Of a stretch of DNA of 12,938 nt, positions 1 through 7,582 are shown one piece after another. The first letter of the stretch is position 1. Each line of letters starts with the position of its first letter. Both the position numbers and the translations under genes were made by a program. A model generated the notes under the pieces. The model worked only from the letters and a program-made list of their open reading frames with translations, did not search any database and had not been told where the DNA came from. Origin of the DNA: Candidatus Hodarchaeota archaeon (GTDB lineage Archaea; Asgardarchaeota; Heimdallarchaeia; Hodarchaeales; Hodarchaeaceae); the NCBI GenBank assembly GCA_016840035.1, contig JAEOTC010000204.1:1-12938 (forward strand). The letters are read 5' to 3'.

Positions 1-1
1 A

Positions 2-55
2 AGAAAATTTATATTTGAGTATGCATATGCTCTATATAAGAAAGGAAAGGCTTAA
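2..55 (+). CDS. Possible 3' end of a gene entering from the left edge (…RKFIFEYAYALYKKGKA*)
   Basis: Frame is open from position 2 to TAA at 53-55 and is followed by a pyrimidine-rich stretch and T10 tract. Too short to identify. Confidence 0.35.
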   Translation, partial: RKFIFEYAYALYKKGKA

Positions 56-89
56 TTCGTTATACTCCCCCTTCATGATTAACGCAAAT

Positions 90-126
90 CCGCCTTCCTT
101 TCACCTTTTCTCAAAATTTTTTTTTT
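90..126 (+). terminator. Putative archaeal oligo-T terminator
   Basis: Pyrimidine-rich stretch ending in T10 (117-126), downstream of the putative + strand stop at 55. Confidence 0.35.
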
Positions 127-279
127 CTAAGTGCTTACTAAGAAATGAATTATATCCCTCTTCTCCATCATAGTCGATATGCAATTCATGAATTTCCAAG
201 AATTACTTCAATTCGGATATGAATGGATCAGTCGTTCTCTAGATTTGCTTCCGATTTCAAAGCAGAATATCGAATTATT

Positions 280-972
280 TTATTCTGCACTTAATCCTAT
301 CAAGAAGTTCATTATCGAATTCGCATTCTCTGCACTTTCTTTCTGAATACCACAATTATCACAAACTGAATATTCTAATTGGTGTTTTTTGCCCCAATAT
401 CGAATATTGTATTTGCCATTCAAAAAGAGACCTCCACATTCACACTTATCATCGGGATTCTCTAGAAAAGTAGTTTCCATCTGTCTTATTTGCCCAATGG
501 CTTTCCGTAAATATATCGTAGGATTCCCGATATTATGAATAGAGGGATCTATCCGAGTTTCCAAGAATGTCAATTTCTCAATATTCGTGTAGCTCTCTAA
601 ATATTTTGGATTTAAAAATGACGGAGTAAAAATTCCACTTGTAACGAAAACAAGATGAATTTTTTCCGCTCCTGATTTGTTTAAAGTGGAGATGCTTTCA
701 GTAAATGTTAGATCATCGGGGAAATGTGCTATTAACTCATCGCTCTGAATTACTTTAACGAAAGTTTTTCTACTCTCTGAATCGAGAGATAAAATATCCG
801 CTGTTTCTTCATTAATAAGAGGAAGAACGGGTTTAATATCGTTCCGTGCAGCGAGGGGGGTTTCGGTTCGAGAATGTGCATGATGTGCAATTCGGTGTCC
901 ATTATTTTTTAGATAAGATATGATAACTCTCAAATGCCAAACACGTTTCTTATCTGTTCTAGTGTGACTCAT
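280..972 (-). CDS. Hypothetical protein: possible degenerate restriction-endonuclease-like N-terminal domain plus C-terminal YgiT/MqsA-type zinc ribbon
   Basis: 230 aa ORF. C177-E-C179-GG … C204-DN-C207-G followed by a short helix (SAENANSIMNFL) matches the YgiT-type zinc finger layout. N-terminal YLKNNGHRI … ADIL … FVKV recalls the PD-(D/E)xK pattern. Confidence 0.6.
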   Translation of the reverse strand: MSHTRTDKKRVWHLRVIISYLKNNGHRIAHHAHSRTETPLAARNDIKPVLPLINEETADILSLDSESRKTFVKVIQSDELIAHFPDDLTFTESISTLNKSGAEKIHLVFVTSGIFTPSFLNPKYLESYTNIEKLTFLETRIDPSIHNIGNPTIYLRKAIGQIRQMETTFLENPDDKCECGGLFLNGKYNIRYWGKKHQLEYSVCDNCGIQKESAENANSIMNFLIGLSAE

Positions 973-1086
973 TTGATTCCTTTCCGAATATTAATTATGG
1001 GTAGTAAGATGATAGTTTGATTTAAGGTCAACAGAGACAGTTTATAAAATAAGTGTAATTCCTAATCTTTAATTCAGTTTGATTAA

Positions 1087-1099
1087 TTTTAATATAAAA
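1087..1099 (+). promoter_or_regulatory. Candidate TATA box for the ATP-grasp gene
   Basis: TTTTAATATAAAA lies about 16-28 nt upstream of ATG 1115 in a divergent intergenic region. The AT-rich background makes this weak. Confidence 0.25.
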
Positions 1100-1114
1100 C
1101 CAGAGAAATGAATA

Positions 1115-2281
1115 ATGACCCCTTCAAATTCTCCACTCCGAATATTAATTTTAGGACGAGAAACTGGCCCCCTTGCACACCTACTAAGGCGTTGTGTAGC
1201 AAATGTCAAGATTGGCACAGTAGATTACCTTGGTAATATGGAGACAAGAGAATTTTCTGATTGGAAGTTTTCTCTTTTAAAACAAACCCCTGAAAAGTCA
1301 ATGGATAGAAAAAGTAGGAGACACTTTGTCGAACTACTTCTCGAACTCTCAAAGGTTATACTTGAAGAGAGAGAATTTGATCAAATAATACCTTTGGCCC
1401 CGCTTCATAGATTTCCAGAACTTGTTGAGGAACTCAGAAACATATGTGAAATTCCAATAACCACACAAAATTCCCTAGAAGTTACATCCTCAAATATTAT
1501 TTTTGTTAAACAATTGATTGAGCTTTATTCTAATTTTGATTCTTATTTTAATATAATTTCAGTTAAAGAAAATTTAGAGGAATTTAAAGAAGGACTGATT
1601 ATCTCCGATAATAACAGTGATTTTATCAGAACTGAAACTATACCTGTTAATTTAGAAAAATCCATATCAAAAGCATATTTTCTCCCTTTTACCGAAGTAT
1701 ATTGTGCAGGATTTTTTTCAAATTATGACTCCATCAGTTTTCTTGGAGTTCAAACTTTAAAGCCACCAGAAGGACATAAATTCATTGGGGAGAACTTAGA
1801 AAGGAACGCATATCATCCCTTCATCGGTAGCTCTTCCCAGGTTAAAAAAATCTCTGGTTTAAGTGAGATTATCAAAAAATTTGACCTTAATGGTTTCATT
1901 ACTCTATTCTTTGGGATCAGGGATAAAAAAATTATTCCTTTTTCTTGTAACACTTTCCCCGATGAGAATATTGACTTGTGGATGAAGAAAATGGATTACA
2001 CCTTAGTCCCATCCTTATTTGAAAGGCCAAAAAACATGAAGAACTTCTCTTTAGATCCTTTATTTGCATTTAAAATTCCAATTTATTCCCCAAAGGTGAT
2101 TCCAGTACCCACTATACCCCAAAGTTTAGCAACTCAACGAAATTTGCCAGGAGTACTCTCTCATCATAACCACCCAGTATGCGCGATTGTTGGGACAGCG
2201 AAATTGTACCAAAATATAGAAAATCTGATGTTTGAGAAAAAAGAGAGTCTTAATAGGATTCTAAAAACCGTTAGTCTGTAA
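1115..2281 (+). CDS. COG2232-type ATP-grasp superfamily protein, degenerate active site
   Basis: N-terminus RILILGRETGPLA…VDYLGNME…FSLLKQTPEKS and C-terminus KIPIYSP…VP…PG…HPVCAIVG match the remembered archaeal COG2232 pattern (ILVVG.NTRP.A…VDYFGD.D; K.ILYAP…PG…GEPVCTV). The E-x-N-P-R motif reads SCNTFP. Confidence 0.7.
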   Translation: MTPSNSPLRILILGRETGPLAHLLRRCVANVKIGTVDYLGNMETREFSDWKFSLLKQTPEKSMDRKSRRHFVELLLELSKVILEEREFDQIIPLAPLHRFPELVEELRNICEIPITTQNSLEVTSSNIIFVKQLIELYSNFDSYFNIISVKENLEEFKEGLIISDNNSDFIRTETIPVNLEKSISKAYFLPFTEVYCAGFFSNYDSISFLGVQTLKPPEGHKFIGENLERNAYHPFIGSSSQVKKISGLSEIIKKFDLNGFITLFFGIRDKKIIPFSCNTFPDENIDLWMKKMDYTLVPSLFERPKNMKNFSLDPLFAFKIPIYSPKVIPVPTIPQSLATQRNLPGVLSHHNHPVCAIVGTAKLYQNIENLMFEKKESLNRILKTVSL

Positions 2282-2678
2282 ATGCGTTTTCTAATTCAGA
2301 TTTTAAATATTTTAAAAGAGATTTTTGAGACTCAGTTTTCTTACGGATATCTAGCCAGACGGGAGTATAAAGACCGAGCTCAATTGCTTGCAAAAGATCT
2401 TTCTCAGTTTGCTCAATTTTTTCAATAAAACGCGAATAAATTCGTGAGACATTATTTTCGTGCGAAATTCCTAAAGCAGTAGCTAATTCGGCATTCTTCT
2501 GATTTTCCAAAACTTTTCCTTTGGCAATTTCCCATTCAATTTCGCGTATAGGAGTCATTTGCTCTTCAACTGTCAATTTTCGAAAGTGTTTGTAAATTTT
2601 TTTGGAATTACAAGAAATGGGTTTCCTATTTCCTTTAACATAACTGACTTTTAAATATACTAATATTGGTGCAATCAC
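2271..2678 (-). CDS. Small sigma70 region-4-like helix-turn-helix protein (true start probably TTG 2576 or ATG 2558)
   Basis: MTPIREIEWEIAKGKVLENQKNAELATALGISHENNVSRIYSRFIEKI fits the LT.RE.EI…EIA..LGIS…VSR…R…KL consensus, followed by a helical C-terminal extension. The first ~35 codons from GTG 2678 look non-coding. Overlaps the convergent ATP-grasp gene by 11 bp. Confidence 0.6.
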   Translation of the reverse strand: MIAPILVYLKVSYVKGNRKPISCNSKKIYKHFRKLTVEEQMTPIREIEWEIAKGKVLENQKNAELATALGISHENNVSRIYSRFIEKIEQTEKDLLQAIELGLYTPVWLDIRKKTESQKSLLKYLKSELENAFTD

Positions 2679-2997
2679 TATTGGATATGATATTTGGGCT
2701 AAAATGAATATTAGAGCTACTTATAATCAGTTTAATTGAGAATCTTGCACTGATCATTATTTTTCCTAACTTTAACTGGTTTAATAGTTATATTTTTACC
2801 TTCTAGGGATTTAATCATAATTTAAAGGAATTTCTTTACCAACCTCACCAAAAGAATGGCAATCATTTAGAAAACAATTTGTATTCCTCAGGAGAGGTTC
2901 TTAGGAACCAAAAAAAAGCACTAATAAGCAATTAAATGCAAAATAATAAGGAAATATTTAATAAACTGAATAAGTCGGGGGCCCTCAGTGAGTAAAT

Positions 2998-3402
2998 GTG
3001 GCTGGAATGGAAATATCTCAAACATCTGCTAAAGATATGTTCAAAAAATGCAGTCCTGAACTAGCATTTCGTTTTATTGGAAATCAGGGAAGGACAATTG
3101 CAACAATAACGAATTTGTCGGAATTAATCTCTACTTTATCAGAAATACCAGCGATGATTGCTCAATTTCACGTTTTTAGAGAAACTACTCAAGATATTTT
3201 TGAGCCTCAACAACTAGATGGTCCAGTTGTTCGTTCAGATCTGGCATTATGGATTAACTATGTTTTAGGTGATTTAGAACTTTCCCGCAGGATTTATGAA
3301 TTAGGAAGGACTGAAAAAAATGCAGAAAAATTAAAAACAAAGTTAATACTACTTTTAAAAGAACGAGAAAAGGAATTAATTGAATTTATTCGTTCTTCAT
3401 AG
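2998..3402 (+). CDS. DUF5752-family protein (start GTG 2998 or ATG 3007)
   Basis: AFRF…ITNLSEL…L..IP…FH…SDLALWINYVLGDLELSRRI matches the DUF5752 pattern F.F…A.NL.EL…YH…NDFA.W….L.D..LA..L. Confidence 0.7.
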   Translation: MAGMEISQTSAKDMFKKCSPELAFRFIGNQGRTIATITNLSELISTLSEIPAMIAQFHVFRETTQDIFEPQQLDGPVVRSDLALWINYVLGDLELSRRIYELGRTEKNAEKLKTKLILLLKEREKELIEFIRSS

Positions 3403-3502
3403 CCTTTGAGAATTTTTACGGTCATTGTTTTTCTTCTAATAACTTTCAAAAACCAACGGATTTTTTTGATCTATCAGTAGTGATCAATATTACGGTGTCT
3501 AT

Positions 3503-4741
3503 ATGTCTTTTATTCGACGAATCCTAGGTGTAGATCCTCAAACAAATTTTGAAAAGGGAAAGGATGCATTTGAAAAGAATAATTTCAAATCTGCATATAA
3601 GTTATTTCATAAATCTTATCAACAATTCGATACAGAAGAAATGAAGCTACTTGCTCTTGATAATGCTGCTTTATCTGCAGAAAAAGCAAAAATGTATGAT
3701 AATGCTACCGAATTATACTATCAACAAATTTTAAGGGTTACAGCTGACGGTAAACCAAATAGAGAGATTTTTCAAAGCATTGAACGTACACTCCAGATGA
3801 TTCGTTCAAGTAAAAAGCCCAAGATAGCTGCAAATGAAGTAAAATATCTGCAATTCTTGATTTATCTCTCAGAGAAAGATTTTAATAAATTAACTACCAT
3901 TTATGACACAAATAAACGAAGTTTAACGGATTCCTATGGGAAAGCAATAGAATTAGCGTGGAAGCTTATCCATTCTTCAGAAACATTCTTAGAACATGAA
4001 CCGTTACCCACTATTACTATCCCTGATGAATTCGCAAAAATCAAGAAGAAAGCAGAAGAAATCATGCAAAGATGTTCTCTTTGTCAGTCAGAGTTATTCA
4101 TTAGTGATGCGAATCAAATAATCGAAAAAGGCTCAGAGTTTCTTTTAACAGCAACCCTTACAGCACATGCACCAGTTTCAGTAAACACAATCTTTTTGAA
4201 AACTGGATCTCAGGGAAGGCTCATCTCAACTACTACCCCAGAATTACCCCTGAATCTTAGTACAGGGGAGAATTATACAATTAACTTCTCACTCATCCCT
4301 AATTTGCCTGGAAAGTGGAGTATTGGCCCTCTAAATTTGAGTTATGAAATACCAAACGAAGATGGTGATTATCCAAGTAGTTCAAATATTTATACTATTG
4401 AAGCAAAAGATGCAGAACCCGCTTTAGATTTAAGAATGGAATCTGAGACACTTGAAGAGGATCACGAATATATTGTCTCTGTGATCGCAGAAAATATCGG
4501 GAAAATCTCATTGCAAGATCTACAAATAAAAATTGAACTTCCTGAAGGAGTAACTATCGCTCAAGGAACAGAGGAAAAATTTATCAGCTCTCTTGCTGAA
4601 GGAGAAACCTTTTCATTTGAGATTTCATTTAAATTTGATCTAGAAAAAACTCATTTCGATGGTCGAGTAATTAGATCTCAATGTTTCATAGGAGATCAAC
4701 ATAGATTAGCAAAAAGTTCAATAAAACTTGGTGGAAAATAG
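3503..4741 (+). CDS. Cytoplasmic TPR/alpha-solenoid protein with two C-terminal Ig-like (BatD/CARDB/NEW3-like) beta-sandwich domains
   Basis: N-terminal TPR pattern FEKGKDAFEKNNFKSAYKLFHKS / ALDNAALSAEKAKMYDNATELY. C-terminal repeats LSTGENYTINFSLIP..PGKWSIGP..LSY and ENIG..LQDLQIKIELPEG…LAEGETFSFEI. No signal peptide or TM helix. Confidence 0.7.
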   Translation: MSFIRRILGVDPQTNFEKGKDAFEKNNFKSAYKLFHKSYQQFDTEEMKLLALDNAALSAEKAKMYDNATELYYQQILRVTADGKPNREIFQSIERTLQMIRSSKKPKIAANEVKYLQFLIYLSEKDFNKLTTIYDTNKRSLTDSYGKAIELAWKLIHSSETFLEHEPLPTITIPDEFAKIKKKAEEIMQRCSLCQSELFISDANQIIEKGSEFLLTATLTAHAPVSVNTIFLKTGSQGRLISTTTPELPLNLSTGENYTINFSLIPNLPGKWSIGPLNLSYEIPNEDGDYPSSSNIYTIEAKDAEPALDLRMESETLEEDHEYIVSVIAENIGKISLQDLQIKIELPEGVTIAQGTEEKFISSLAEGETFSFEISFKFDLEKTHFDGRVIRSQCFIGDQHRLAKSSIKLGGK

Positions 4742-4757
4742 AGAAATTTCTCTGAAT

Positions 4758-4785
4758 GGGGGAAAGGGGACTCTAAAAAAAGGGA
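4758..4785 (-). terminator. Putative oligo-T terminator of the minus-strand HTH gene
   Basis: Minus strand reads TCCCTTTTTTTAGAGTCCCCTTTCCCCC just after the stop at 4797, between convergent genes. Confidence 0.4.
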
Positions 4786-4796
4786 CTGATTTTTGC

Positions 4797-5066
4797 TTAC
4801 AGAACTTTCCTGAACGAGTACATTTCTCCCTTTATCTTGTTGATGTTAGCACAATACAATGTCTGCCTCATATCACTTAGACATGGGCGTTTTTCAACGT
4901 ATTCGTCATCTAACAGTCTTTTTAACGCATATCGCACACTCCTTGTCGAGCAAGAAACACGTGCGACGATTTCCTTTGAACTAACGGGCCCCTCTTCAAG
5001 AATTACACTGTATACCTTCTTACACGAGTTTGGAAGTTGTACTTCTTCAAGAGTGGTCTTTGTCAT
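4797..5066 (-). CDS. Small archaeal winged-helix (MarR/Lrp-like HTH) transcriptional regulator
   Basis: LPNSCKKVYSVILEEGPVSSKEI…RSVRYALKRL….VEKR….DMRQTLY matches the widespread archaeal family LPPSAKLV…L…GPLTQKEI…RTVRYAL.RL…DARQ.LY. Confidence 0.85.
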   Translation of the reverse strand: MTKTTLEEVQLPNSCKKVYSVILEEGPVSSKEIVARVSCSTRSVRYALKRLLDDEYVEKRPCLSDMRQTLYCANINKIKGEMYSFRKVL

Positions 5067-5185
5067 GGAATACTCATCCAGAATTTTTACAATTCCTTAT
5101 TTTTTTTTGACCTCATTTTAGTTTAAATAACCTTATGATATATGCAAGAAATTTCAAAGTAAAAAGAAACACTTAGTGAAACTAT

Positions 5186-7348
5186 TTACGTTGGCCGAAG
5201 TCCTAATCGTGTAATGAACGTGGAATAGTAAGCGAAGCAATCAACAGATTCTTTCTCACCCAATGTAACCGATGAGTGTACTATTCTATTCCTAAGATTT
5301 CTAAAATGAGCAATTTTTTTCTCATTAGGTAGATCAAATCCGCGTTTTCTTAATTCCACCACCTGAGTCTGAAAATCTGCCTTAGTTTGGGAATTTATTG
5401 GACATATTTGTAAATATCTCGTTGATAATAAATTTTTCACGGCTGCATCGGCTTTTATAACGAAAAGCTCAAAGTTTTGGTTCTTGAATGCATGTCTTGC
5501 TTGATTCCATAATACTCTTACATAATTTATACTCTTAGCTGCTTGAATCGGATCCATGCTCAGAGTTGACATGGTATTTTCTTCTGAATCTTCGAAATTT
5601 TGAATTATGTATGAAATTCGATTGTACACTTGACTATAAGTCATATATGATGAGCCATTGGTAAATAATACGATTAACAACAACAAGATCGTTGGGATTG
5701 CCAAAAACAGAATCAAGGCAGTCAGATTTGTAAAATATATTGGTAAAAATTGAATAGAAAAGAAGAAATATGATAAAATATTTATTGCGTCAAATACAAA
5801 TAAACCAATCAGAATATATATTCCCCACTCATATTTACGGTTAATACGCTTTGAAAAAACCAACGTTTCATTTTCTGAAGACTCGACAAAATTAAGAATG
5901 GCATATGTTCGAAATGGTATACTGGCGATATGAATCAAAATAGAGTCGTTTGGTACCTCTTTAATGTTATATATTCCTCTAAAACTATTTCGAAATATTT
6001 TGAAGGCATTTTGAATTGAGGTTGTTACAGTCCATTGATTTACCCTATACCATTTTCCTTTTGAATCAAGGTAGATCAAATAAACTGGTAATAAAATTAT
6101 TGTACATATGTTAAGCAATATTGCTAAGAAATTCCAAGTAAAAGGCTGTGGTAATTCGAATTCAATGAATATTTGGAATGTACCAACCGCGTTAGTTTCA
6201 GGAGTCACTAATAAATAGTAAATTCCCACGTCAAGGGTCTCAGAGATATTGATCTGCCCATCTCTTTTCTGTTCTTCTTCTCGTTCCGTCAATCTGGGTT
6301 TTTGAAGCCCCTCATCGTAGATCTCTATAATAGCATAATCCAATATAGTGGATGTGGTCGTATTAAACTCAAACACACGGATATTCACAATTGATCTGCT
6401 CATATTAACTCGAAATTTGAAATAATAACGCTTCCGAGGAACGTAACCTTGATCAACCTTCACAGCATATGTTTGATTATAAGGTAACTCTTGAGCTGTC
6501 TGAAAATTATATCCTGCCGATTCAGCCGTAAATGAAACATTATATTGACCAATAGGAAAACCTACTACTGCTTTATGAGTTATAACCACAAAATATGTAT
6601 CGGTTGCAGGAGCGTTCCATGAATAGGTGTAATTACTAGACAAAATCTCAAAGGGTAGAAGGATTGGATTCTGAGGGTTAAGTTCACGAAAAATTGTGAT
6701 TTGTGCATACCGAAGTACAGTTGGTGTAATTTCTCTCAGATTTATGTTTCCAACCTGATTTTCATCTAATAGTACTTTCCAATAATGACTCTCATGACTA
6801 ACTGTGAAGTTTCCCGTAATTTGGTTCTCATTAACTTGAATCGCAGAATCGAGACTATATGCTGACGAGGGTATAAACGCTAGAAGTGAGTAAGTAAGAT
6901 TTTGGGTTGGTGAGGTTCGTGTATCATTCGCAGCTATGATCCAATCCCCATCATCATGGGATACCCATGAAGCCAGGTAATCTGTAGCGCTTTCCGTACG
7001 TTCTAATATTTGAGTGAAACTTTCACCTGACGGACGGTATAGATCTATATCCATAGTGATAACACTATAAGGAGATATTGAGAGATAAACAACTTGATCT
7101 TGTTGAATATTCTCAAGTTTCCAGTAGTGAGTACTATTTTCACTCGTAAAAATGCCTTCTTGAGAAATTCCTGATTGAATAACTGTAGAATTGGTAAAAT
7201 CATTGCTCAGAGAGTGAGGTGTTAATGTCAATATAGTTACATTTCCTGTTACAGTTACTGGATATTCAGTACTATGAAGAAATGCAAGTATTACTAGTAA
7301 GAGAAGGAAATAGTACGTTTTAGACAAACATCTCACACAAAAATACAA
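5186..7348 (-). CDS. Membrane protein: signal peptide, 3 extracellular PPC-like beta repeats, 3 TM helices, C-terminal HEPN domain
   Basis: Hydrophobic N-terminus (aa 12-24). Three ~115 aa repeats (NDFTNSTVI…HYWK; YSLDSAIQV…HYWK; YNFQTAQEL…YYFKF, each with a later G/D-x-W/Y strand). 12 N-x-S/T sequons in aa 36-369. TM segments at ~405-427, ~508-530 and ~542-562. Helical C-terminus with FRNLRNRIVH (R686-x4-H691). Start is TTG, or a nearby GTG/TTG. Confidence 0.8.
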   Translation of the reverse strand: MYFCVRCLSKTYYFLLLLVILAFLHSTEYPVTVTGNVTILTLTPHSLSNDFTNSTVIQSGISQEGIFTSENSTHYWKLENIQQDQVVYLSISPYSVITMDIDLYRPSGESFTQILERTESATDYLASWVSHDDGDWIIAANDTRTSPTQNLTYSLLAFIPSSAYSLDSAIQVNENQITGNFTVSHESHYWKVLLDENQVGNINLREITPTVLRYAQITIFRELNPQNPILLPFEILSSNYTYSWNAPATDTYFVVITHKAVVGFPIGQYNVSFTAESAGYNFQTAQELPYNQTYAVKVDQGYVPRKRYYFKFRVNMSRSIVNIRVFEFNTTTSTILDYAIIEIYDEGLQKPRLTEREEEQKRDGQINISETLDVGIYYLLVTPETNAVGTFQIFIEFELPQPFTWNFLAILLNICTIILLPVYLIYLDSKGKWYRVNQWTVTTSIQNAFKIFRNSFRGIYNIKEVPNDSILIHIASIPFRTYAILNFVESSENETLVFSKRINRKYEWGIYILIGLFVFDAINILSYFFFSIQFLPIYFTNLTALILFLAIPTILLLLIVLFTNGSSYMTYSQVYNRISYIIQNFEDSEENTMSTLSMDPIQAAKSINYVRVLWNQARHAFKNQNFELFVIKADAAVKNLLSTRYLQICPINSQTKADFQTQVVELRKRGFDLPNEKKIAHFRNLRNRIVHSSVTLGEKESVDCFAYYSTFITRLGLRPT

Positions 7349-7582
7349 GTTATCTTAATATTAATTATTTACTTCTTTTTGGGGTGTAATTATTTACACA
7401 TTTGTTTAAAGAGAATGAAGGAGAAAAAATTTTCTGATAAAAACACCTACTACGAAATTTAGTGCCACAATAATTAGGTATAATATTAAAGGAATATTCG
7501 CATTTCCTGTTTTGAAGAGAGAATAATAGTTGAAAATTATCTTCTGAATATTGATGAGATACAAATATATCCAAGGATATGA

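Follow-up and report, generated by a model that had tools for sequence, protein, structure and literature searches.

A conserved membrane protein of Hodarchaeales with a predicted cytoplasmic HEPN domain: a candidate receptor-ribonuclease

Transmembrane (TM) signalling in prokaryotes is known to lead to phosphorylation, to second messengers, to proteolysis or to the binding of DNA. That a receptor should have RNA cleavage as its direct output has only been predicted, for bacteria and in 2013, and we found no experimental test of such a receptor in the literature. The question raised by the locus described here is whether it encodes such a receptor. It lies in a stretch of 12,938 nucleotides from a Candidatus Hodarchaeota archaeon (assembly GCA_016840035.1, contig JAEOTC010000204.1, positions 1 to 12,938; hereafter the window, with a GC content of about 34%), and it consists of a minus-strand open reading frame (ORF), 5186-7348, that runs through 720 codons from a TTG and the product of which (the target, P0001) is a "hypothetical protein" in every source. 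The database call for the contig is a protein of 716 amino acids (P0002), compatible with a GTG at 7336 (MRCLSK...), and this GTG is likely the real start. A first-pass annotation, made by a model from the sequence alone, had described the target as a receptor-like ribonuclease (RNase) with extracellular repeats and a cytoplasmic HEPN domain. Our analysis leads us to regard it as a lineage-specific core membrane glycoprotein of Hodarchaeales that carries a HEPN tail in the cytoplasm, and we tentatively favour the reading in which cleavage by this tail is switched on when the ectodomains cluster or dimerise.

The C-terminal domain very probably has the HEPN fold, with three independent lines, structure, motif placement and sequence, converging on this assignment. 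An AlphaFold2 (AF2) model of residues 596-720, built from 36 diverse sequences, reached a predicted local distance difference test score (pLDDT) of 92.9. When this model was compared with known structures using Foldseek, the best rows were nearly all HEPN proteins, at weak E values of 0.07-0.5, and an exhaustive structural alignment performed without Foldseek on 48,161 representative chains returned HEPN-superfamily chains only among its top 23. The nearest clusters in the ESM Atlas were DUF3644 (TM-score 0.77) and DUF4145 (TM-score 0.69). Among the structural matches were AbiA, AbiV, Csm6 and HepT, together with proteins that are not nucleases, namely sacsin and the substrate-binding domains of ANT, GlnE and DrrA. 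KEN, C6orf70/DUF4209 and Las1 were absent from the Pfam and structural rows listed, which is no proof of their absence. Sequence comparison with Pfam yielded sub-threshold matches to HEPN_RiboL-PSP in 27 of the 36 family members (best E 2.2e-4), to DUF4145 in five of them (best E 5.8e-5), and to Cthe2314, HEPN, HepT and Ymh in a few members each. The relative P0077, which an exhaustive search linked to the target (phmmer E 5e-8), came to 21.8 bits against the DUF4145 cut-off of 23.1; a word-index search with its HEPN part matched P0077 alone, and a profile search for longer relatives provided no bridge to a Pfam-annotated HEPN. In a small profile test with hhalign, the RNxxxH of the family was aligned with the RRNxVAH of three RiboL-PSP sequences (E 0.026). 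Thus, the HEPN assignment of the first-pass annotation was borne out by the model, the exhaustive structural alignment, the sub-threshold Pfam matches and the placement of the motif.

This placement follows a rule given by Anantharaman, Makarova, Burroughs, Koonin and Aravind in 2013 (PMC3710099), according to which the Rx4-6H motif of HEPN domains is found at the end of helix 3 or at the start of the loop between helices 3 and 4, with a polar residue after the arginine, while inserts fall between helices 2 and 3 and a conserved acidic residue, when present, lies in helix 2. In the target, R686-N687-R-I-V-H691 stands at the end of H3 and an insert helix lies between H2 and H3. R-x4-H occurs only once in the whole protein, as this RNRIVH at residues 686-691, and its position (nucleotides 5293-5276) is the one that the first-pass annotation had reported. 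As to the conservation check proposed for the motif, R686, N687 and H691 are invariant in 33 close orthologues, and across the 36 diverse domains the arginine is invariant, with the asparagine and the histidine at least 90% conserved. It had also been cautioned that the upstream helix reads ADAAVKNLL where many HEPN domains have A..AVE. This caveat is answered by D634, which is likewise invariant in the 33 orthologues and is located in H2, where PMC3710099 puts the acidic residue.

On which side of the membrane does this domain lie? Hydropathy and a full-length AF2 model (51 homologues, mean pLDDT 85.9) agree on the layout (cf. Table 1), and the succession proposed earlier, from an N-terminal hydrophobic helix through three beta domains, TM1, an alpha/beta segment and a TM2-TM3 hairpin to a helical domain, was recovered, with a low-confidence spacer in the AF2 model between the N-terminal helix and beta domain 1. 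The TM helices number three, with the N-terminal helix as a fourth should it stay uncleaved; because an arginine and a lysine precede this helix, the beta domains would be outside and the C-terminus inside in both cases. The topology was deduced from the positive-inside rule and the pattern of N-x-S/T sequons. As means over 41 full-length homologues, the ectodomain has a net charge of -20.5 and 11.9 sequons where 5.1 are expected from composition, the TM1-TM2 loop a charge of +3.7 and 1.0 sequons (0.72 expected), the TM2-TM3 turn no charge and 0.05 sequons (0.08 expected), and the HEPN domain a charge of +7.8 and 0.24 sequons (0.94 expected). The target itself contains 16 sequons, 12 of them within residues 27-404, and several ectodomain sequons are conserved, each in 28-39 of the 41 homologues. 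Conserved sequons of the target are N141, N180, N270, N291, N315 and N367. Both the charge distribution and the enrichment and depletion of sequons therefore agree with the claim that the ectodomain is outside and the HEPN domain inside.

All three ectodomain domains were modelled as jelly-roll beta-sandwiches that resemble PPC and CUB domains by fold. The best fold match of the ectodomain is the tandem of collagen-binding (PPC) domains of ColG (5iku, Foldseek E 9.6e-10), followed by proteins with CUB domains and by SIDT1's jelly-roll ectodomains. A Pfam PPC match (PF04151) was not found for P0001, and the homologue P0050 came to 25.0 bits against the cut-off of 25.9. Domains 1 and 2 are related in sequence (BLASTP E 1.8e-5, 25% identity over 84 amino acids), whereas the relation of domain 3 to them is recognisable by fold only. 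At the level of modelled folds, the label "PPC-like" that the first-pass annotation gave to the repeats appears to be a fair one. In two giant proteins, P0074 (3236 amino acids) and P0081 (2422 amino acids), a stretch resembling the target's residues 245-335, which cover the last part of beta domain 2 and reach into domain 3, recurs in as many as 19 copies, so that this ectodomain module is shared with very large surface proteins. The alpha/beta domain on the cytoplasmic side had no Pfam match, either for 23 members or for P0001:428-508, and protein-atlas features scored at most 0.77 for it.

Conservation is distributed very unevenly along the protein. Among orthologues that are about 50% identical overall, the HEPN domain is the most conserved part (75-82% identity), and the alpha/beta domain has 57-73%, the outermost beta domain 32-40% and the stalk 24-48%. 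The stalk, which is weakly conserved, is followed by a linker whose residues 591-596 have a pLDDT below 50. The rate of non-synonymous substitution (dN) among the closest orthologues was 0.014-0.032 for HEPN, 0.035-0.059 for the alpha/beta domain and 0.12-0.23 for the ectodomain. Synonymous substitution (dS) was saturated (at least 1, often undefined), which makes dN/dS a rough measure, and only the contrast in dN was used; with this reservation, dN/dS was far below 1 in all domains, with no domain-level sign of diversifying selection. The HEPN domain also evolves far more slowly than the proteins of neighbouring genes. Defence toxins are typically fast-evolving, and the effector of the target is the opposite.

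The gene was present in all 24 Hodarchaeales genomes searched, essentially as a single copy, the few extra matches being fragments or split contigs. This distribution speaks for a role in housekeeping, signalling or stress and not in suicide defence. Relatives of about 30% identity found by exhaustive search are 680-775 amino acids long and have the same layout, and a form with 27-29% identity, its open frames about 795 amino acids in length, was present in two genomes that belong to another family within the order. Outside the order, the HEPN profile retrieved only weak or differently built relatives, in 2 of 59 other genomes of the class and in 16 of 376 other Asgard genomes, and the whole target protein had no meaningful match in Pfam or NCBIfam. 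Over the entire 13 kb, the order of the genes is the same in 10 related genomes, the proteins of which are only about 50% identical: DUF5752, a 412-amino-acid protein, the target, a C1orf109-like protein, a 488-amino-acid protein, ArcS and RaSEA. A conserved order of this sort is poor evidence of functional linkage, but the block is no defence island. Pfam and NCBIfam indicated neither a cas gene nor an MNT or other nucleotidyltransferase gene among the window ORFs, and PADLOC had no match for the target or its neighbours apart from weak winged helix-turn-helix (wHTH) noise, in agreement with the earlier remark that no MNT antitoxin or cas gene is adjacent.

Domains related to the HEPN of the target were also encountered in other architectures. 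P0079 (419 amino acids, on a metagenome contig of 2188 bases) is a cytoplasmic leucine-rich repeat (LRR) protein that ends in the HEPN family of the target with R-N-x3-H intact (WRKLRNKLAHSS); here, the same type of effector is joined to another binding module. A paralogous family of about 330 amino acids (P0083, P0106-P0116) occurs in other Asgard genomes, e.g., in four of the five genomes of family f20, and combines a zinc ribbon at the N-terminus with TM helices and the TM-hairpin-stalk-HEPN module of the target. Its motif is R-E-[DN]-x-A-K, with lysine for histidine and glutamate for asparagine, at 75% mean column identity, and its HEPN domain is probably non-catalytic or altered. P0064, on a contig of 652 bases, may be a fragment and not a stand-alone form.

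The reading that we tentatively favour proceeds as follows. The HEPN domain would function as a metal-independent endoribonuclease kept at the membrane's inner face, with composite active sites formed across a dimer. A surface ligand, a neighbouring cell or a state of the envelope could cluster or dimerise the ectodomains, by which two HEPN domains would be brought together and cleavage of membrane-proximal RNA would be turned on; the alpha/beta domain, itself conserved, may be regulatory or may provide a binding site for RNA or a partner. The linker is flexible and poorly conserved, which makes rigid helix-to-helix coupling unlikely and control by proximity most plausible, and the realistic options are therefore induced proximity of two tails or no control. 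A two-copy complex prediction for the HEPN domain (A2) scored 0.42 against 0.24 for the control and is counted neither for nor against dimerisation. Several points weigh against the proposal: (i) the curated HEPN models of Pfam and NCBIfam all remained below their cut-offs on the target protein, (ii) a search of PDB sequence profiles with the HEPN alignment A2 returned rows at chance level (E at least 0.13), (iii) any ligand of the ectodomain is hypothetical, and (iv) the sequence data would be explained just as well by a constitutive dimer, by constitutive activity or by a HEPN domain without catalysis. In its most specific form, namely that Hodarchaeales universally use a kinase-free transmembrane receptor-RNase in which contact or ligand-induced clustering assembles HEPN dimers that cleave specific RNAs, the proposal seems doubtful to us.

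The idea has a precedent in bacteria. PMC3710099 describes three TM-linked HEPN groups (a WP-signature TM segment with DUF4145; a helical domain with one TM segment and an Abi2/Swt1 HEPN; and HEPN-2TM-Zn-ribbon) and proposes that bacterial membrane HEPN proteins are stimulus-dependent RNases "similar to Ire1 and C6orf70". The target resembles them in its TM segments, its possible external sensor and a HEPN domain in the cytoplasm whose motif is intact, as well as in the proposed logic, in which a surface stimulus would alter the HEPN domain's state and the stability of RNA; in sequence it leans weakly towards DUF4145-like and RiboL-PSP-like HEPN domains. It differs in being archaeal and universal in one order, in its large glycosylated ectodomain built of three domains, its three TM helices and its additional cytoplasmic alpha/beta domain, and in passing no existing Pfam model. 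Its layout is none of the three; the idea, already predicted for bacteria in 2013, would recur here in a new arrangement. Experimental characterisation of the three bacterial groups was not found in the literature, nor was any paper joining Hodarchaeales and HEPN or any description of the target family or its architecture, in archaea or elsewhere; the statement of the first-pass annotation that no archaeal protein of this architecture was known thus agrees with our literature search. An unnamed archaeal HEPN-like dark-matter domain (EPP00023009) is reported in PMC13607799, and a link between it and the target family could not be made.

The protein had also been called Ire1-like, and this stands as an analogy. 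Like Ire1, in which the RNase works as a dimer or oligomer, the target would have a sensor domain beyond the membrane and a C-terminal HEPN-type RNase, the KEN domain of Ire1 and RNase L being a HEPN derivative (PMC3710099). However, Pfam and NCBIfam indicate no kinase or pseudokinase in the target, only about 35 residues of helix and linker separate TM3 from the HEPN domain, there are three TM helices instead of one, and a KEN structure is absent among the top structural matches listed, an absence that does not exclude the KEN type. The likeness to Ire1 would therefore be one of function, without evidence of common descent. Other comparisons set the target further apart. AF_0298 (PDB 2hsb) and HepT (7ae9, 5yep, 7bxo) are small soluble proteins, whereas the HEPN domain of the target is the tail of a 720-amino-acid membrane protein, and HepT is paired with an MNT antitoxin, of which there is none near the target. 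Csx28, the accessory protein of type VI-B CRISPR (bioRxiv 10.1101/2021.11.02.466367), is likewise a membrane protein with a HEPN-type domain, but it is reported to be a Cas13b-activated membrane pore encoded in a CRISPR locus, while the target has a large ectodomain and no cas context. Compared with its best fold match, the PPC domains of ColG (s3a-s3b, 5iku, PF04151), the ectodomain of the target has no protease attached.

Which other explanations compete with a receptor controlled through its ectodomain? The one that survives best takes the protein for a constitutive housekeeping RNase tethered to the membrane, which would act on a substrate near it (mRNAs of secreted proteins, or stable RNA) and whose ectodomain would anchor or localise it and transmit no signal. 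A universal, essentially single-copy gene in a syntenic housekeeping block would suit such an enzyme, the extreme conservation of HEPN suggests a fixed cellular substrate, the flexible linker speaks against allosteric coupling, and an inhibitor or antitoxin gene was not found nearby among the window ORFs. We nevertheless consider this explanation rather unlikely, as an ectodomain of 375 amino acids and three domains, with purifying selection and conserved sequons, would be costly for a mere anchor, and as relatives join the same HEPN to binding modules (LRR), which is the typical logic of a sensor and its effector.

A second explanation, to which we give a smaller chance still, is that the HEPN domain does not catalyse at all and serves to bind protein, nucleotide or RNA or to oligomerise, the target being an adhesin, an organiser of the envelope or a channel. 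The invariance of R686, N687, H691 and D634 in orthologues that are only about 50% identical stands against it, being the pattern of catalytic HEPN domains according to PMC3710099. There are, on its side, precedents in sacsin, in the C-terminal domains of KNTases and in the pore-forming Csx28; many of the fold matches (ANT, GlnE, DrrA, sacsin) are non-nucleases; the P0083-like family keeps the fold and is well conserved, yet has R-E-x-x-A-K with lysine for histidine; and the ectodomain resembles the collagen-binding domains of ColG and CUB domains, i.e., binding modules. Improbable, and disfavoured here although the first-pass annotation had offered it, is a surface-sensing abortive defence, in which attachment of a virus would lead to destruction of RNA by HEPN and to dormancy or death: HEPN RNases are common defence effectors (AbiA, AbiV, Csm6 and HepT are among the structural matches) and the membrane-distal beta domain is the fastest-evolving part of the protein, but the gene is found in 24 of 24 genomes, essentially in single copy, at a fixed site among tRNA-modification and other housekeeping genes, with no partner immunity gene and no PADLOC match besides the weak wHTH noise, all of its domains are under purifying selection without domain-level diversification (dS saturated), and its HEPN domain is far slower in evolution than the neighbouring proteins.

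Hodarchaeales are among the closest known archaeal relatives of eukaryotes. The target family, which occurs in all genomes searched from this order, itself central to models of how eukaryotes arose, is a clean test case for a receptor that cleaves RNA: one gene without a partner, a catalytic motif that is intact, an effector of very high conservation and a large ectodomain. Should the RNase prove active and gated, Ire1-type signalling would have a functional analogue in archaea, and signalling from the surface to RNA would be a new class of output in prokaryotic signal transduction. Should the activity prove constitutive, archaea would possess a membrane-tethered RNase of which our literature search gave no example. 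Either way, a fold and a testable activity are assigned to a "hypothetical protein".

Table 1. Coordinates of the target ORF, its predicted domains and the neighbouring genes in the window
Feature	Coordinates	Strand	Residues and remarks	Basis
Whole target ORF	5186..7348	-	720 codons + stop	
N-terminal hydrophobic helix	7271..7321	-	10-26 (AF2 10-25); R and K before helix; signal peptide or N-in membrane anchor	hydropathy, AF2
Extracellular beta-sandwich domain 1	6869..7204	-	~49-160 (AF2 54-158); most variable part of the protein	
Extracellular beta-sandwich domain 2	6509..6868	-	~161-280 (AF2 177-275); detectable repeat of domain 1	
Extracellular beta-sandwich domain 3	6149..6508	-	~281-400 (AF2 293-398)	
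TM1	6062..6136	-	405-429 (AF2 407-429); then K/R-rich cytoplasmic flank	hydropathy, AF2
Cytoplasmic alpha/beta domain	5837..6061	-	430-504 (75 amino acids; compact part 437-501); order beta-alpha-beta4; second most conserved part	AF2
TM2-TM3 hairpin	5654..5836	-	505-565 (TM2 505-530, TM3 542-565); outer turn of 11 residues, uncharged	
Cytoplasmic stalk helix and linker	5555..5653	-	566-590, continuous with TM3; then acidic, low-confidence, poorly conserved linker 591-598	
Predicted HEPN domain	5189..5554	-	599-720 (122 amino acids); H1 600-622, H2 626-648, insert helix 659-668, H3 676-692, H4 698-715	
RNRIVH, HEPN Rx4-6H motif	5276..5293	-	686-691; end of H3	
D634	5447..5449	-	acidic, invariant, in H2; occupies the site of the acidic residue conserved in HEPN	
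DUF5752 protein	2998..3402	+		
412-amino-acid protein	3503..4741	+		
Winged-helix protein	4797..5066	-	89 amino acids	
Antisense ORF	4837..5121	+	probably spurious	
C1orf109-like protein	7583..8224	+	213 amino acids; divergent from target	
488-amino-acid protein	8240..9706	-		
ArcS-like protein	9959..11866	+		
RaSEA	11871..12938	+	runs off the window	

The gene closest to the 3' end of the target, 119 nucleotides downstream on the same strand, encodes a winged-helix protein that matches MarR (E 6.8e-6) and, more weakly, TrmB and HTH_24. Since only 6 of 11 syntenic loci carry it, it is no obligatory partner of the target. A T-rich tract and an AT-rich element separate the two genes, so that the target is probably transcribed alone. 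The ORF antisense to the winged-helix gene is less conserved than this gene. All sequencing runs found to contain the stretch were of marine-sediment DNA, none of RNA.

On the other side, the divergent neighbour of the target matches the CA109-like/C1orf109-like family PF15011 (E 6.3e-10, 39.6 bits against a cut-off of 27), a eukaryote-type ribosome-biogenesis family, and adjoins the target in all 10 related genomes checked. The 488-amino-acid protein beyond it is conserved and has no family match, an FtsZ row being at chance level (E 0.078); its gene still adjoins the target in the order's second, divergent family, in which the target has the opposite orientation. There follows the archaeosine synthase pair, consisting of an ArcS-like protein with DUF5591, TGT_C2 and PUA domains, whose match starts at residue 258 and scores 338.8 bits, below the NCBIfam cut-off of 440, and the radical-SAM protein RaSEA, which is above its cut-off with 270 bits. 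These archaeosine genes, and the names under which homologues of the target are recorded, agree with an origin of the window in an Asgard archaeon of the Hodarchaeales/Heimdall group. At the opposite end of the syntenic block, the 412-amino-acid protein, conserved there, gave only weak helical-repeat and BatD-like rows, and the likewise conserved DUF5752 protein was recognised with an E value of 3.3e-8.

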